Part shown: piece by piece, positions 1,197-5,649 of the stretch | How the letters are laid out: the number at the start of each line of letters is the position of its first letter | Position numbering within the stretch: the stretch's first letter is position 1 | Sequence record: NZ_CP084015.1 | Length of the DNA: 6,945 bases | From: a plasmid | Strand: one strand, 5' to 3' | The notes under the pieces: generated by a model | Databases searched by the model: none | What the model was told of the DNA's origin: nothing | The model's input: only the letters and a program-made list of their open reading frames with translations | Position numbers and translations under genes: made by a program

Positions 1197-2246
1197 TTAT
1201 GCATTATTTTCAACTAAATACTTCATATATCCAAACCGGCTCTTCACATCTTTTTTGTTCTGCAGAGATTTATATTTTCGTAACAAATAGTGATAGATGT
1301 CCAGATCATGACGTCCTGCATCTGTTGGCTCATACTCTACATGTTCCTCTGCAAGCAGTGCCAGTTCTTCCAACTGTGATCGATTAAATTCATTGCCACA
1401 TGCTTCAGACCATAACGTAAATTTACTTTCAAGAACCGCATTTTGTTCCTGATCTGCAGTCGAATCAGAGTCTGGACAATATTCCGGAAAATCGTATATT
1501 TCCATCTGCCCATGTATTTGCTCTTGTTCTGCAGTACACTTTTTTATTTTAAATTTAATTGCCCGCGTTAAACGCCCTTTGGTTATTTTTTCGTATTCAA
1601 ATTCAATATCTGTAACTTCATTTATGTCTTTCTTACATTTTTGTAGCACTTTATTAAATTCTCGAAAGCTCTCATTATTTTTATTTGTTGCCCCCATTAG
1701 TTCTCTTAAATCTTTAAGCTCTACAGTCCATTCTCTCCTGTATAATTTGTCCTTTAAAAGAGGATATAATTTTAGAGAATATTTTGATTTCAAACGCAAA
1801 GAATAGTCTAATGTATATTCAATATATCCTTTTTCAGCCAATCCAAAAAATGCTTCTTTGAGTTTTGGATTACAGTCGATCGTTATTGTTCTTTTTCCGA
1901 AATCTGGATCACTCACAATAACTCTTGCGTCCGAAAATAAATTTACTTTTATATAATCCCCATTATTATTCAAATCAATTTTTATTCTTGAACCAAGAAG
2001 TTTGTCAAGACTCTTTTCAATTTCGCTGCTTTTCAATTTATTGGGATACTCATATCCAAGTAACCTTAAATATTCATCAATAGTAAAGACTACTTCCGAA
2101 CTTTCTTCTTCTCTTGCATTTATTTTAGCCAAGTATGTATCAATCAATCTCATTTCTCCAAGGTTGTATTCTGAAAACTTTGACCATATTAAAGGTTTCG
2201 ATTTTTCGACTATATAATTTTTAGTTAATGTATTTTTTTTAGACAT
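1197..2246 (-). CDS. rep: Rep_3-family (iteron-type theta) plasmid replication initiator protein, 349 aa.
   Basis: ATG 2246..2244 preceded by AGGAGGTG 4 nt upstream. The N-terminal region (NYIVEKSKPLIWSKFSEYNLGEMRLIDTYLAKI) resembles the conserved Rep_3 N-terminal motif of lactococcal and enterococcal theta replicons. Six 22-bp iterons lie immediately upstream. The ORF-track start at 2294 would lie inside the promoter, so the downstream ATG was chosen. Confidence 0.85.
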   Translation of the reverse strand: MSKKNTLTKNYIVEKSKPLIWSKFSEYNLGEMRLIDTYLAKINAREEESSEVVFTIDEYLRLLGYEYPNKLKSSEIEKSLDKLLGSRIKIDLNNNGDYIKVNLFSDARVIVSDPDFGKRTITIDCNPKLKEAFFGLAEKGYIEYTLDYSLRLKSKYSLKLYPLLKDKLYRREWTVELKDLRELMGATNKNNESFREFNKVLQKCKKDINEVTDIEFEYEKITKGRLTRAIKFKIKKCTAEQEQIHGQMEIYDFPEYCPDSDSTADQEQNAVLESKFTLWSEACGNEFNRSQLEELALLAEEHVEYEPTDAGRHDLDIYHYLLRKYKSLQNKKDVKSRFGYMKYLVENNA

Positions 2247-2265
2247 GAGCCACCTCCTATTCCCT

Positions 2266-2294
2266 ATTATAATATAATAGTGGTATATTGTCAA
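2266..2294 (-). promoter_or_regulatory. rep promoter: -35 TTGACA (2294..2289), 17-nt spacer, -10 TATAAT (2271..2266). An inverted iteron half-site GTGGTAT (2280..2286) sits in the spacer.
   Basis: Consensus hexamers read on the minus strand. The half-iteron inside the spacer fits the classic Rep autorepression arrangement. Confidence 0.6.
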
Positions 2295-2635: not shown

Positions 2636-3133
2636 ATGAACGAAAAATCAATGCAAAAGATAAAAGAATATGCAAAAGAGCGTAAGGATCTATATCTGCA
2701 GTATAGTGTTTCGGAAAAAAATATTCCGGAAAGTATCAAAAAACAGAACAAAGAAAATCTGAAACTGATGCAAGATGCACTGGCAACATTAGGCGTTCGA
2801 TTGAATATCAAAGATGGAGAGATCTCGCTTCTGATGCACACATCAAATTTTGTAGATCGTAAAACAAGGAGAGCTGGCCGGAAAAGAACATATGCGTTAA
2901 AGGAGCAAGAACAAGGAAACTACACAGCAGATGCATACCGGTTTTCAGATGTGATATTGCTGATTGAAGAAAAAGGGGATAAGGAGACGCAAATCATTCT
3001 TGGAATGAGTGAATCGACTTATTTCCGGCATAAAAAGAAAATGAAAGCCAGTGAATACTACAGTTTGTTAGACCCACAAAAAATGACGGATCGGATGTAT
3101 CTGGAATCCGTAAAAGGCAACAACTACTTTTAG
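2636..3133 (+). CDS. Putative DNA-binding protein, 165 aa, with a Hin/resolvase-like C-terminal HTH (GRKRTYALKEQEQ ... GMSESTYFRHKKK) but no serine-recombinase catalytic domain.
   Basis: ATG at 2636 lies downstream of the predicted TSS. The ORF-track TTG at 2573 is the -35 element itself. The C-terminal resemblance to Hin (GRPRAINKHEQEQ ... STLYRYF) is from memory, not a search. Confidence 0.6.
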   Translation: MNEKSMQKIKEYAKERKDLYLQYSVSEKNIPESIKKQNKENLKLMQDALATLGVRLNIKDGEISLLMHTSNFVDRKTRRAGRKRTYALKEQEQGNYTADAYRFSDVILLIEEKGDKETQIILGMSESTYFRHKKKMKASEYYSLLDPQKMTDRMYLESVKGNNYF

Positions 3134-3161
3134 ACTTTCAATTTTAATTTCGGTAGTACTA

Positions 3162-3196: not shown

Positions 3197-3311
3197 AGAA
3201 GTAAGGTGGCCTCGTCGCAATTGGAGCGGCGCTAGCGCAAACTTTTAGGACAGGAATAAGATAACCCACAGCAATTGGAGCGGTGCAAGTGTCAATTCCT
3301 GTCCGTTTTTT
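3197..3311 (+). ncRNA. Candidate small RNA (about 115 nt) from P1 to a strong intrinsic terminator. Contains two copies of GCAATTGGAGCGG (3217..3229 and 3271..3283) and a GCGCTAGCGC palindrome.
   Basis: Promoter and terminator bracket a region with no plausible ORF (only a 9-codon GTG frame and stops). The internal direct repeats were read directly. Confidence 0.35.
3248..3311 (+). terminator. Intrinsic terminator: stem GGACAGGAAT (3248..3257) / ATTCCTGTCC (3295..3304) with a 37-nt loop, followed by G-TTTTTT-ATT.
   Basis: 10-bp perfect stem and T-tract read directly. It may also terminate the 2636..3133 gene. Confidence 0.6.
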
Positions 3312-3376
3312 ATTATCTGACAATTACAGACTGCAGAACGAAAATTGTGTTTGAAAAAGAGACAATTAGGGGATAC

Positions 3377-3405
3377 TTGAAAAGCTTATGGTCATATGCT
3401 ATAAT
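3377..3405 (+). promoter_or_regulatory. Promoter P2 (antitoxin RNA): -35 TTGAAA (3377..3382), 17-nt spacer, extended -10 TGCTATAAT (3397..3405). The palindrome TGCCTATAGGCA (3405..3416) sits at the start site.
   Basis: Read directly. Confidence 0.6.
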
Positions 3406-3411
3406 GCCTAT

Positions 3412-3484
3412 AGGCAAAACGATAGAAAGTGCTCATATGGCACAACAAAACCCCCACGAGTTCGCACCTCGTGGGGGTTTTTAT
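3412..3484 (+). ncRNA. Candidate type I antitoxin small RNA (about 70 nt). It carries AAACGATAGAAA (3417..3428) and CATATGGCACA (3434..3444), which are perfectly complementary to the toxin mRNA translation-initiation region. Ends in the shared bidirectional terminator.
   Basis: Strong promoter, no credible ORF (a frame from ATG 3437 runs through the terminator), and a perfect terminator. The two blocks repeat in the same orientation at 3589..3600 and 3607..3617, the antisense of the toxin RBS/start region. Confidence 0.55.
3447..3482. terminator. Bidirectional intrinsic terminator: AAAA-CCCCCACGAG (3451..3460) - 7-nt loop - CTCGTGGGGG (3468..3477) - TTTTT. Shared by the convergent antitoxin RNA (plus) and toxin mRNA (minus).
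   Basis: 10-bp GC-rich perfect stem with an A-tract on the 5' side and a T-tract on the 3' side, read directly. Confidence 0.75.
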
Positions 3485-3519
3485 GCCGTTTTGGGTGGGT
3501 GGCTTAAACCCCAAGGTTG

Positions 3520-3609
3520 CTACCAGTCATTCTTGTCCAACCATTTGCAGATGTAGTAGGCAACTACACTCGCCAGGACAGAAAGTATAAACGATAGAAA
3601 TTCACTCAT
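3520..3609 (-). CDS. Candidate type I toxin, Fst/Ldr-like in architecture: 29-aa peptide MSEFLSFILSVLASVVAYYICKWLDKNDW, with a single transmembrane helix and a short charged C-terminal tail.
   Basis: ATG 3609..3607 with SD GGGGG 8 nt upstream; TAG stop at 3522..3520. It is below the ORF-track size cutoff. The SD is sequestered by an upstream anti-SD (CACCCC) in a 6-bp hairpin (plus coordinates 3616..3644). Convergent small RNA and shared terminator as in par of pAD1. Confidence 0.55.
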   Translation of the reverse strand: MSEFLSFILSVLASVVAYYICKWLDKNDW

Positions 3610-3655
3610 ATGGCACACCCCCTTTCTCTACCTGTCTAGGGGTGGTAGCTTATCC

Positions 3656-3685
3656 AGTATAGCATATGACATTTAATACTGTCAA
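3656..3685 (-). promoter_or_regulatory. Toxin promoter: -35 TTGACA (3685..3680), 18-nt spacer, extended -10 TGCTATACT (3664..3656).
   Basis: Read directly on the minus strand. The -10 region GTCATATGCTATACT is an inverted copy of the antitoxin promoter's GTCATATGCTATAAT (3391..3405). Confidence 0.5.
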
Positions 3686-3704
3686 TTTTAAAACTGACAG
3701 TATT
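3675..3704. promoter_or_regulatory. Perfect 10-bp inverted repeat AATACTGTCA-N10-TGACAGTATT overlapping the toxin -35 element. Possible operator, or an insulator hairpin after the upstream gene.
   Basis: Read directly. No U-tract on either strand, so it is not a canonical terminator. Confidence 0.35.
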
Positions 3705-3740
3705 AGAGGAGAAATCAACAAAATACGTATGTTTGTGTGT

Positions 3741-4757
3741 TTATCGAAACCTGTACCAATTTCGTTTTAGATATGCTCTGATTCCAAGATAAAGTGTATG
3801 AATCAGGAACAACAGCACAACCAGATTGATGGGAATAAAATTCCGTATGAAATCTCCAAACCATATCAGGCATGCCAGGCTTAGCAACCAGACAGAAAGA
3901 CTGATTGTGTCAGCGTACTGGTTCGCATAATGCTTACAACCTTTTATAGCACAAATTGCAAGTAAAGAAATACTTCCGACACCAAGCAGTAAAATCATCA
4001 GTATCCAGAGAAGACAGTGAATAACCATAGATGCAACAGGATGTGGAACCATATCACCCAATTGTGACGCCCAATTTGCCGCTTTAAATAGATTTTCCGT
4101 GCAAAGGCATATAAAAGTCCATGTAGAGTCGAAAAACGCCTTAAAATCGCGAATAAAGGCGTCAGAGTAAAATGCAGTAAATAAAGTGACTATAATTCCG
4201 TATAGTAATGACACCACAAAAAATGTCTGATGTGAGAGTGTACGTGCTTGATATTCCTGTTTCAGCTGTTTTTCCAGTATTTCAGATCTCAATCTTGCCT
4301 GTTCATACACCTGTTCGTTCAAAGAACGTCTATAGGCCTCTGTTTCCTTTCTTTCTTGTTCTGCTTTTTCCTGTGCGGTCTGCAACTGCCTTTCCCTGTT
4401 GGAATACTCTGACCTAACGGCTTCTACCTCGGCTAGGGCGTTTTGGATGTTCTTTTGCAATAGAGTGTTTTGTTTCTCTAATTCCTGATTTTGTTGAAAT
4501 ATCACATCGCTGTTGTTCAGCTTCTCGATCTGATCTGCCTGTTCGGCTATTTTCTTCTTTTGCTGTTGCACGATCAATTCCAGCTCTTGCTTCTCGGATG
4601 ATGTCCTGGACTGCAGATTCTTCAGTTCCAGGTAAAGACTCTCCGCCTTGTCCAATGCTTCGGAGAGCTGCAAGTCTTTTTTCGATAGCTGCATCTGCAT
4701 CTCTTCGAGTTGGCTCATCAACTGCTCTTGTAGCTCTAAGTCGTTGTAATCGCTCAT
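3741..4757 (-). CDS. Coiled-coil (about 170 aa, E/K/L/Q-rich) plus C-terminal polytopic membrane domain (4-5 predicted TM helices). Either the C-terminal two-thirds of the relaxase, separated by a +1 frameshift, or an independent mobB-like overlapping gene.
   Basis: 338-aa ORF with composition matching the genome. ATG 4757..4755 has SD GGGGG 6 nt upstream. The coiled-coil continues seamlessly from the relaxase-frame coiled-coil across the junction. Hydrophobic segments in the C-terminal 150 aa. Confidence 0.6.
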   Translation of the reverse strand: MSDYNDLELQEQLMSQLEEMQMQLSKKDLQLSEALDKAESLYLELKNLQSRTSSEKQELELIVQQQKKKIAEQADQIEKLNNSDVIFQQNQELEKQNTLLQKNIQNALAEVEAVRSEYSNRERQLQTAQEKAEQERKETEAYRRSLNEQVYEQARLRSEILEKQLKQEYQARTLSHQTFFVVSLLYGIIVTLFTAFYSDAFIRDFKAFFDSTWTFICLCTENLFKAANWASQLGDMVPHPVASMVIHCLLWILMILLLGVGSISLLAICAIKGCKHYANQYADTISLSVWLLSLACLIWFGDFIRNFIPINLVVLLFLIHTLYLGIRAYLKRNWYRFR

Positions 4758-5649
4758 GTAGTGCCCCCTTTGCCTTTTCTCTCAGTTCTTCCAATTGTTT
4801 GACCAAGGTCTCTTTCAGTTCCGACAATTTATCGAATTGCAGAGACAGCAAATTATACTTTCGAATGTTCCGATTCGTCTCACAGCGTGAGGATATGACA
4901 CCTTTTTGCTCCATTTTCCTTGCTACATATCCTTCATGAATGGTCGGGATCTGCTCTTTTCCCTGTCTTTCATAGCTTCGGTGATCGATCTGCAGATTAG
5001 GTTCAAGGTATTGATTACAATATTGCGCCCAACGCATTCTCCATTCTTCCACCTTTTCTGTTTTATTCCAGTCGTTAGCCTCCACGGTTACTCTTTGCCA
5101 CATTTTTCTGCCTTTTGCTCCGATTTTTTGTAAGCCTGTTTCAGAATCAATGATTGGAATTTTTTGGCCGGATTCGTCTAATTTATATCCCTTTTTCTCT
5201 TTCTGTCCCCATGTCCCATTTTTGGTGAGTGGTCTTGTTGTTCCCAAAATATGTGCATGATGGTTTCCTTGTTTCCAATGGATATTTGCATCGACACACA
5301 TGCCCTCATCCGCAAGACTCTGTGCAAATTCATGCACTAACTTCTTACTTTGTTCCAGATCAAGTTCATTGGGAATAGCAACCTCCCATTCTCTAGCAAG
5401 CCTTGCATTACTTTGTGATTCCACTTTATGGACAGCATTCCAAAGTGTCTCTCGATTTTGATAGGACTCTGGCGCATATTTGCACAAGATTACTTCGGAA
5501 AATACGACTCCATTCTTTTTTCGATAGTCATGGATGATTCCTGTTTCCATATCTTCTAATTTATCAGCAGATCGATAAGCAGAGCTTGCAACTGCTGACT
5601 GTCCTTTTCCACGGCTGATGTTTTTTATAGAACAATGATAAATTGCCAC
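4414..5649 (-). CDS. mobA: MobA/MobL-family (MOBQ) conjugative relaxase, GTG start. The authentic frame is probably only 5649..about 4765. The last 112 codons of this ORF (R/A-rich) look like a shadow of the overlapping coiled-coil frame.
   Basis: N-terminus MAIYHCSIKNISRGKGQSAVASSAYRS matches the MobA/MobL signature (RSF1010 MobA begins MAIYHLTAKTGSRSGGQSARAKADY). Histidine triad HHAHIL present. SD AAAGGAG lies upstream of GTG 5649..5647. Confidence 0.8.
   Translation of the reverse strand: MAIYHCSIKNISRGKGQSAVASSAYRSADKLEDMETGIIHDYRKKNGVVFSEVILCKYAPESYQNRETLWNAVHKVESQSNARLAREWEVAIPNELDLEQSKKLVHEFAQSLADEGMCVDANIHWKQGNHHAHILGTTRPLTKNGTWGQKEKKGYKLDESGQKIPIIDSETGLQKIGAKGRKMWQRVTVEANDWNKTEKVEEWRMRWAQYCNQYLEPNLQIDHRSYERQGKEQIPTIHEGYVARKMEQKGVISSRCETNRNIRKYNLLSLQFDKLSELKETLVKQLEELREKAKGALHERLQRLRATRAVDEPTRRDADAAIEKRLAALRSIGQGGESLPGTEESAVQDIIREARAGIDRATAKEENSRTGRSDREAEQQRCDISTKSGIRETKHSIAKEHPKRPSRGRSR

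Follow-up and report, generated by a model that had tools for sequence, protein, structure and literature searches.

Layout of the locus

The DNA studied here, hereafter the window, is a 6,945-nt stretch of a plasmid (sequence record NZ_CP084015.1), and its positions 3364-3685 very probably form a par-type (Fst/RNA II architecture) type I toxin-antitoxin cassette. As judged from the sequence, the toxin is most likely a 29-residue membrane peptide and the antitoxin a convergent antisense RNA of ~72 nt. The cassette is an unannotated, widespread member of this known class and not a new kind of system. Direct reading of the window bore out the coordinates of all features described in the original prediction. 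The elements that define the two genes, including the open reading frame (ORF) of the toxin and its Shine-Dalgarno (SD) sequence, are the following.

3685-3656, minus strand: toxin promoter, with -35 TTGACA (3685-3680), an 18-nt spacer and extended -10 TGcTATACT (3664-3656); 11/12 consensus with TG
3649-3443, minus strand: predicted toxin mRNA of ~205 nt, ends predicted (fold -71.5 kcal/mol, z -2.75)
3623-3618, minus strand: SD sequence AGGGGG (GGGGG at 3622-3618), 8 nt upstream of the AUG
3609-3520, minus strand: toxin ORF (ATG at 3609, TAG at 3522-3520), 29 aa, MSEFLSFILSVLASVVAYYICKWLDKNDW
3377-3405, plus strand: antitoxin promoter, with -35 TTGAAA (3377-3382), a 17-nt spacer and extended -10 TGcTATAAT (3397-3405); 11/12 consensus with TG
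3412-3484, plus strand: predicted antitoxin RNA of ~72 nt, ends predicted, no ORF; 5' end AGGCAAAA, then single-stranded block A', a small hairpin and the terminator
3417-3428, plus strand: block A' AAACGAUAGAAA, complementary to toxin codons 4-7 (3600-3589); 12-bp duplex arm
3430-3444, plus strand: block B' UGCUCAUAUGGCACA, complementary to the SD-AUG spacer, the AUG and codons 2-3 (3617-3603); 15-bp arm including two G-U pairs, with an exact 11-nt core at 3434-3444
3429-3443, plus strand: small antitoxin hairpin, GUGCU (3429-3433) with GGCAC (3439-3443), present in the minimum free energy (MFE) fold
3447-3460 / 3468-3481, both strands: bidirectional intrinsic terminator, perfect 14-bp stem, 7-nt loop, A-run upstream and T-run downstream

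The two top promoter-like sites within 3200-3900 are those of the antitoxin and the toxin. Both had been predicted at these coordinates, each is one position short of the consensus, and their convergent arrangement is kept in relatives. Most conservation counts given here refer to 53 non-redundant modules extracted from such relatives, and covariation tests to an alignment (A3) of 32 toxin mRNAs. Antitoxin promoters of the 53 modules match the consensus at a mean of 10.3/12 positions (at least 9 in 51/53, TG in 49/53), and in 32 aligned relatives the -35 always has its TTG, with TGnTATAAT nearly invariant. Toxin promoters reach a mean of 9.2/12; in the mRNA alignment their -10 is kept 7 nt upstream of the conserved GCUACC 5' end. 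The inverted repeat that the two promoters had been noted to share is present in the window (3391-3406 / 3655-3670; 16 nt, 94% complementary). As a regulatory element it was rejected: it is not kept on the toxin side of relatives, and amounts to two TRTGnTATAAT-type promoters.

A shared bidirectional terminator was likewise confirmed, as a perfect 14-bp inverted repeat spanning 3447-3481. The hairpin folds on both strands, and 9/13 pairs are compensatory across 32 relatives. This terminator is the only overlap between the predicted toxin mRNA and antitoxin RNA and, because it is shared, the 3' hairpins of the two transcripts would be fully complementary.

The only ORF of at least 60 aa listed in the region runs on the plus strand from 3275 to 3556 (93 aa, TTG start), and on that count alone it could be taken for the real gene of the region. 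It crosses, however, a promoter, the 14-bp terminator stem and the opposite-strand toxin ORF, and the length of the stop-free frame across the terminator is not conserved in the 53 relatives: it lies between 26 and 129 codons and reaches 80 in only 15/53. We agree with the original prediction that this ORF is spurious, and the probability that it is a genuine gene is negligible.

Conservation of the toxin frame, the pairing blocks and the mRNA folds

The predicted 29-aa minus-strand ORF and its GGGGG SD are present, and both the peptide ORF and the pairing blocks are kept in relatives. A start codon (ATG, GTG or TTG) with an SD was found in 47/53 modules, the predicted peptides having 26-32 aa, and GGGGG or GGAGG is conserved at the SD position. 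At codon positions 1/2/3 the entropy is 0.63/0.26/0.96 over 24 aligned core codons; Ile19, Leu23, Val10 and Val15 (alignment numbering) vary synonymously only, F6, A16, Y17, C20, K21 and W22 (same numbering) are invariant, and indels in the ORF of aligned relatives are in-frame. This pattern of variation indicates that the toxin ORF is under coding-type selection. The minus-strand transcript could instead be a non-coding regulatory small RNA with an untranslated small ORF, as Rfam files the related streptococcal RNA SpF66 (see below) under 'Gene; sRNA', and as the strong structure of the RNA and the nearly invariant nucleotides of its ORF hairpin would allow. Yet variation follows codons (most at position 3, least at position 2, with Ile/Leu/Val codons changing synonymously only), while frame, SD spacing and a length of 26-32 aa are kept in 47/53 modules and ORF indels stay in-frame, so that we hold a non-coding transcript to be very improbable.

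At the toxin start position, ACG, ATA or GTA occurs in L008 (~2990-3000), in L076 and in the first copies of L040 and L007, all of which keep the SD, the ORF and a matching antitoxin block. Such copies may encode attenuated or decaying toxins, or may use non-canonical initiation.

The window peptide consists of a hydrophobic stretch (residues 4-21), then W23, then an LDKNDW tail. This Trp between helix and charged tail is invariant in 53/53 modules, and the family has a near-invariant VAYYICKWLD core, ten residues that show unusually little variation, in peptide as well as in nucleotide sequence. A prophage-associated variant (L102-L136, IMG/VR contigs of 30-45 kb) has Gly in place of Trp and a hydrophobic tail in place of the charged one (...VAYYICKGLDKLLSVLCGN). 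Of ten peptides looked up exactly in a collection of 15 billion proteins, the only forms present were one of 65 aa, spuriously extended, and one of 32 aa ('hypothetical protein' or unnamed). A HMMER scan of 1.84 billion representatives returned 204 clusters at E of 0.001 or below; all among the matches listed belong to one tight family (...SV[LM]AS[VI]VAYYICKWLD...), many of them as N-terminally over-extended ORF calls.

Two exact direct repeats connect the predicted antitoxin with the toxin start: AAACGATAGAAA at 3417-3428 and 3589-3600, and CATATGGCACA at 3434-3444 and 3607-3617. Through these, the two RNAs can form a duplex (3617-3603 with 3430-3444, and 3600-3589 with 3417-3428) that begins immediately 3' of the SD, takes in the AUG and ends at codon 7. 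The prediction of a two-block duplex that occludes the toxin start holds as to the exact 12- and 11-nt repeats; its geometry does not, and instead of 11 + 12 bp with a 5/6-nt bubble we find 15 + 12 bp separated by a 2x1 internal loop. RNAduplex gave -39.1 kcal/mol for the two 5' regions, compared with -13.1 +/- 3.0 (best -25.2) for 500 shuffles. What looked like a mismatch between the blocks is accounted for by the 5' arm of the small antitoxin hairpin. A hairpin of at least 4 bp was scored in 35 of 44 relatives, a count that includes a few mis-located antitoxin starts, and the stems read by eye at this position differ between relatives (GUACUC/GAGUAC, UGGUC/GACCA, GUUUCA/UGAAAC). The antitoxin RNA as a whole folds at -30.0 kcal/mol (z -5.7), and its predicted 5' end AGGCAAAA is kept in relatives.

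Block sequences vary from locus to locus, yet match within each locus. We compared them by pairwise local alignment, as the MAFFT alignment A3 loses the register of the downstream repeat copy. Smith-Waterman scores for the toxin 5' region aligned with the sequence past the terminator averaged 33.5 within a locus, 15.9 between loci and 14.7 for shuffles, and a module's own downstream region was its best partner in 49/53 cases. The sampled RNAduplex version gave -36.8 within a locus vs. -23.6 kcal/mol between loci; it is the noisier test, in that terminator flanks rich in G+C pair with the SD and the set still contains near-duplicate modules. These comparisons indicate co-evolution of the pairing blocks in each locus. 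In par, DRa and DRb likewise differ between loci and are matched within a locus (Weaver 2020, PMC7472228), and, as there, blocks that differ between loci and match within them suggest a lack of cross-talk between paralogues. In L007, L040, L070 and L078, two or three cassette copies with differing pairing blocks lie within a few kb, which is consistent with paralogues insulated from cross-talk.

The repeated blocks could also be thought of as DNA sites for a protein (operator- or iteron-like), since the plasmid does use repeated DNA sites elsewhere, namely 22-bp iterons at 2302-2457. A conserved DNA-binding protein would, however, need a conserved site, and these repeats differ between loci while matching within them. 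No protein gene travels with the cassette, of which only 3364-3666 is shared, and one repeat copy lies in coding sequence whereas the other lies in a promoter-proximal transcribed region that ends at the shared terminator. We therefore give this explanation hardly any weight and read the blocks as RNA pairing elements.

The toxin mRNA has in addition an internal structure, made up of the following parts.

3649-3643, minus strand: GCUACCA, 5' arm of a long-range helix at the mRNA 5' end, in the MFE fold
3642-3638, minus strand: anti-SD CCCCU, pairing with AGGGG (3623-3619) in the SD-hiding stem
3573-3547, minus strand: ORF-internal hairpin over codons A-S-V-V-A-Y-Y-I-C, 99% of cells paired, nucleotides nearly invariant
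3525-3519, minus strand: UGGUAGC, 3' arm of the long-range helix, containing the toxin stop UAG in the window
3501-3497, minus strand: candidate second anti-SD CACCC in the 3' untranslated region (UTR), which could pair with GGGUG (3620-3616)

The SD is sequestered by a 5' CCCC, as predicted, although probably not through a 6-bp pairing with CACCCC: covariation favours CCCCU (3642-3638) as the partner and assigns the CA at 3644-3643 to the separate long-range helix. In the SD stem 93% of cells are paired, with compensatory change in 2/5 pairs (C-G to U-A where the SD is GGAGG). The 7-bp 5'-3' helix shows compensatory change in 4/7 pairs (C-G 16 / U-A 14; A-U 19 / G-C 9). Taken together, the proposed mRNA helices have 89.5% of cells paired vs. 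42-50% with slid partners, and 0/500 shuffles reach the observed score. The ORF hairpin lies beyond the reach of covariation, because there is almost no variation in it. Synonymous sites of the ASVVAYYIC codons are nearly frozen across the family (3547-3573, A3 columns 109-135), and the extreme conservation of the peptide may in part be due to RNA-level constraint. The second anti-SD pairing has 82.5% of cells paired and both-side changes in 3/5 pairs, its status being uncertain because a competing 3'-UTR hairpin covaries too (32 mRNAs). A short helix of the 5' UACC with an internal GGUA covaries at one pair and is a possible alternative fold. Since these alternative pairings (SD/CACCC, UACC/GGUA) covary, the toxin mRNA may switch folds.

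From these elements the following mechanism can be proposed. The minus-strand promoter would give an mRNA of ~205 nt (3649 to ~3443) for a 29-aa single-helix membrane peptide, and this mRNA would be kept translationally quiet by its own fold, through the 5-bp stem that hides the SD and, as a second element, the 7-bp helix that ties the mRNA 5' end to the stop-codon region. The convergent plus-strand promoter would give the ~72-nt antitoxin RNA (3412 to ~3484), whose single-stranded 5' tail and next small hairpin would pair with the toxin mRNA over 15 + 12 bp and block ribosome access. Once the plasmid is lost, the short RNA would not be replenished, the more stable mRNA would be translated, and the peptide would arrest or kill the segregant. 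The scheme supposes transcription from both promoters, different stabilities of the toxin mRNA and the antitoxin RNA, toxicity of the 29-aa peptide, and post-segregational killing as the biological role of the cassette.

Distribution of the cassette and its place among type I systems

Megablast of the whole window against 72,556 plasmids gave a single match, covering 3364-3649 only, on a 225-kb C. perfringens plasmid. A more sensitive plasmid search added a 5.6-kb Waltera intestinalis plasmid, the uncultured plasmid pRGI00522 and, partly, an L. salivarius megaplasmid. No gene is annotated at the cassette in these four GenBank/RefSeq records, in agreement with the prediction that standard annotation would miss the locus. 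The occurrence of the cassette in complete plasmid records of three bacterial orders is solid. Two cultured strains that carry it are Waltera intestinalis 19YCFAH0.3Co2 (plasmid LC817946.1) and Roseburia inulinivorans DSM 16841. Scanning one genome per GTDB species with a back-translated pattern yielded 298 loci, mostly from Lachnospiraceae and Oscillospiraceae; 80 were kept, 42 of which lie on contigs of at most 10 kb and the others on contigs of up to 2.1 Mb. IMG/VR provided 53 further loci, many on prophage-sized contigs (30-45 kb), and blastn of the cassette against GenBank phages gave no match. Waltera-type cassettes also appear on 0.5-kb contigs of Streptomyces assemblies (L042, L054), and the database protein P0020 fuses the cassette peptide to a VSYTHLDVYKRQ stretch, which we take to be a translated Illumina Nextera adapter.

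When the window was compared with the fetched loci by BLAST, the sister plasmid L005 proved 98.3% identical over 4.2 kb, and all other loci shared only 3364-3666. The mobile unit is thus the 300-bp cassette itself. That it is clearly mobile between unrelated replicons is to us one of the three most interesting points beyond the original prediction, next to the covarying 5'-3' fold-back helix with the possible second anti-SD and to the invariant ten-residue core. Finding nearly the same cassette in plasmids from different orders speaks against the older opinion that horizontal transfer does not occur among type I systems (Fozo 2010, PMC2887945).

We compared the cassette with the architectural elements of par given by Weaver 2020 (PMC7472228). 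It shares with par of pAD1 (E. faecalis) and with SprA1-SprA1as the convergent promoters, an antitoxin of ~65-75 nt, a toxin mRNA of ~200 nt, an overlap confined to the bidirectional terminator, and two direct repeats elsewhere that cover the toxin start; according to the T1TAdb paper, the interaction in Fst/RNAII and SprA1 lies outside the overlap region. Further likenesses to par are the SD-hiding 5' stem, a toxin of ~30 aa with a single helix, a helix-end Trp and a charged tail, and the location on a plasmid. A conserved Trp between the hydrophobic transmembrane helix and the charged C-terminus is the signature of Fst/Ldr toxins (Fozo 2010, PMC2887945; Weaver 2020, PMC7472228), and the window peptide carries it. 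The claim of a par-like architecture is, in sum, supported by the convergent promoters, direct repeats, shared terminator, SD stem, coding-type ORF and location on a Rep_3/Mob plasmid.

Two features of the cassette differ from par, namely the covarying 7-bp 5'-3' helix and the possible second anti-SD in the 3' UTR, neither of which is, to our knowledge, described for par. In hok/sok (R1) and aapA1/IsoA1 (H. pylori), 5'-3' long-distance pairing and fold-back or metastable structures keep the full-length toxin mRNA inert. The cassette resembles these systems in its 5'-3' mRNA pairing and in having more than one candidate anti-SD; they differ from it in that their toxins belong to other families and their antisense RNA lies opposite the 5' part of the mRNA. 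Activation of hok/sok and aapA1/IsoA1 requires 3' processing, of which our analysis, made on sequence only, gave no sign in the cassette.

The closest described relative of the cassette is the Rfam family SpF66. The toxin mRNA matched Rfam RF02442 (SpF66_sRNA) over the full model (positions 1-239) with 34.1 bits and E 2.6e-6, below the SpF66 gathering score of 42, and a gathering-threshold Rfam scan of the window finds nothing. The antitoxin RNA matched Rfam RefA9 (an Enterococcus antisense small RNA) weakly (23 bits, E 0.53), and the cassette stays below threshold for every Pfam, NCBIfam and Rfam model. The SpF66 locus of the S. sanguinis satellite phage Javan542 (102.9 bits; peptide MSDIAIELVLTIMAEVIAGLCLHYLCKWLDSKEDDRD) is like the window in its promoter, SD stem, ORF, terminator, repeated start-region block and convergent TGnTATAAT promoter, and the two peptides share ...CKWLD and a charged tail (BLASTP E 2e-7). 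The streptococcal SpF66 peptides differ in length (32-37 aa), in a D/ExxxG motif, in four more helix residues than the window peptide, and in weak Fst hidden Markov model (HMM) matches of 12-19 bits (Javan542 12.3, sub-threshold) where the window peptide has none. SpF66 hosts are Lactobacillales, those of the cassette Clostridia.

Weaver 2020 (PMC7472228) describes a streptococcal Fst clade with a DxxxG motif, and Fozo 2010 (PMC2887945) a toxic Fst-B homologue of S. pneumoniae with an antisense RNA of ~65-75 nt; we infer that SpF66 probably corresponds to this clade, of which Fst-B is a member. A literature search for SpF66 returned malaria-vaccine papers only and none with Streptococcus terms, Tesorero 2013 uses SSRC names and leaves SpF66 unmentioned, and a search with peptide motif strings found no paper.

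Clostridial type I toxins are known from C. difficile, where they are tied to prophages and plasmids (Soutourina 2019). The C. difficile toxins (CD2517.1-RCd8, CD0956.2-RCd10 and others) have a weak N-terminal helix likeness to the cassette peptides (NF047374 13-21 bits, E 3e-4 to 0.1), the window peptide itself scoring 18.9 bits with a cutoff of 60, and PHROG 738 (phrog_738; C. difficile-type toxins) gave a weak N-terminal helix match (E 8.6e-5). These toxins are, however, 50-53 aa long with a Lys-rich tail, as opposed to 29 aa in the window, and for antitoxins they have long antisense RNAs that overlap the toxin gene, an arrangement suggestive of a degradation mechanism, whereas the cassette has a short RNA that would pair through repeated blocks and overlaps only at the terminator. 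For Clostridia other than C. difficile, the review by Soutourina 2019 has Fst-like hits only in C. bolteae and C. asparagiforme. The 'Ldr/Fst-like' sequences in these two species (Fozo 2010, PMC2887945) may belong to the family of the cassette.

Several observations weigh against a par-type cassette in the window. The window peptide had no match to NF033608 or PF13955 (Fst_toxin) at E up to 10, so that the description of the toxin as an Fst/Ldr-type membrane peptide is upheld by the Trp and charged-tail signature and not by the Fst HMMs. With cutoffs of 26 bits for NF033608 and 36 bits for PF13955, the controls Fst-pAD1 (34.7 bits) and PepA1 (58.3 bits) both pass the former; the PF13955 threshold is uninformative here because both controls fail it. 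The peptide has S10-V-L-A-S14 (SxxxS) vs. PxxxG in most Fst toxins, with SxxxG at the same position in 7/53 relatives. Unlike in par, a YUNR loop motif is missing from most terminator loops of the cassette: by automatic fold it is absent from both strands' loops in 43/53 modules, and in the window UUCG is found in the antitoxin terminator loop only. In type I systems the antitoxin promoter is usually stronger than the toxin promoter. The prediction of a stronger antitoxin promoter is correct as a family mean (10.3 vs. 9.2) and incorrect for the window, where the toxin promoter is as near to consensus as the antitoxin promoter (both 11/12), and an antitoxin excess is therefore not obvious from the window sequence. 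Moreover, relatives are homologous only as far as ~3666, which is upstream of the toxin -10, so that the toxin -35 is specific to this plasmid; it matches the consensus and lies inside a 32-bp palindrome outside the shared cassette. The KNDW tail departs from the family norm G[DE][DEK], and looks like the result of a 4-nt deletion that shifted the frame onto a UAG inside the long-range helix. A canonical start codon is missing in 6/53 relatives, because of which some cassette copies may be decaying. Relatives occur also in chromosomes and prophages, and part of the apparent host range may be contamination or assembly artefact.

Candidate roles and the surrounding plasmid

Some of these points would fit a decaying or inactive remnant, in which the frameshifted tail and the replaced toxin -35 region have disabled or altered the window copy. 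The aberrant tail, the stop codon within the 3' arm of the long-range helix, the end of homology near 3666 and the canonical starts lost in 6/53 relatives can all be placed on that side. The window nevertheless has its ORF, SD, both promoters, exact pairing blocks and terminator intact, and the 98.3%-identical sister plasmid L005 encodes the identical peptide, KNDW tail included. The new tail is also still polar and charged, and Fst of pAD1 stays toxic with its charged tail truncated (Weaver 2020, PMC7472228). A remnant is for these reasons improbable, and we retain the reading of an intact par-type cassette.

Such cassettes must have a role besides plasmid addiction, since relatives are also found in chromosomes and prophages. 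The main role of a functional par-like pair might then be one other than the killing of plasmid-free cells, such as the exclusion of phages or abortive infection, competition among mobile elements, or growth arrest induced by stress. Besides small plasmids, the contigs that carry relatives include large chromosomal ones (up to 2.1 Mb) and viral ones of prophage size (30-45 kb), several genomes have two or three copies of the cassette, and the functions of chromosomal Fst loci are described as obscure (Weaver 2020, PMC7472228). On the other hand, the window cassette sits on a Rep_3/Mob plasmid of ~7 kb, plasmid-sized contigs hold roughly half of the loci retrieved, and none of the PADLOC defence models matches the toxin peptide. 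Killing and non-killing roles are not mutually exclusive. We consider a mainly non-killing role unlikely for the window, and continue to favour post-segregational killing there.

A joint reading of these results is possible, and is offered tentatively. The AYYICKWLD peptides would be a distinct toxin family, kin to Fst at the superfamily level only, that has spread horizontally as a 300-bp cassette among gut Clostridia and other hosts, in plasmids, prophages and chromosomes. It would be controlled jointly by a par-type two-block antisense RNA and a hok/AapA1-type mRNA lock, made of the 5'-3' fold-back helix and two alternative anti-SDs, and the invariance of the ten-residue core would point to a specific cellular target and/or dual coding for the RNA hairpin and not to generic membrane damage.

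About 300 species-level genomes from Lachnospiraceae and Oscillospiraceae of the gut carry the cassette, which is found there both on small plasmids and within prophages. Recognising it would help explain how small cryptic plasmids persist in gut commensals, and it would offer a compact stabilisation or counter-selection tool for genetically difficult Clostridia. Its relatives also make up a large natural set of co-evolving RNA-RNA pairs in which antisense specificity can be studied.

The replicon in the window is a mobilisable plasmid of ~7 kb with a Rep_3 initiator, 22-bp iterons, a MobA/MobL relaxase, and DUF6040 and DUF3847 proteins. Directly upstream of the Rep_3 gene (1197-2294, minus strand), at about 2280-2457, are ~6-7 tandem copies of the 22-bp repeat ATACCACTATATRCCGCAAAAA, most likely the iterons of the replication origin, and these are followed by an A+T-rich 12-bp repeat at 2465-2508. 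The stretch 3217-3312 has two copies of GCAATTGGAGCGG, at 3217 and 3271. A stem GGACAGGAAT...ATTCCTGTCC (~3250-3304) with a T-run after it lies in the gap separating the cassette from the 186-aa ORF, and may be a terminator, an uncharacterised RNA or an oriT-like element. One further feature lies at the toxin-promoter end of the cassette.

3674-3705, both strands: near-perfect 32-bp palindrome, TAATACTGTCAATTTT/AAAACTGACAGTATTA, overlapping the toxin -35 and outside the shared cassette

This palindrome could be an operator for a plasmid regulator. A 20-mer akin to it occurs at 3128-3147, at the end of the 186-aa ORF. On the minus strand, the ORFs of the MobA/MobL relaxase (4414-5649) and of the DUF6040 protein (3741-4757) overlap by 344 nt in different frames, and one of the two is probably over-extended.

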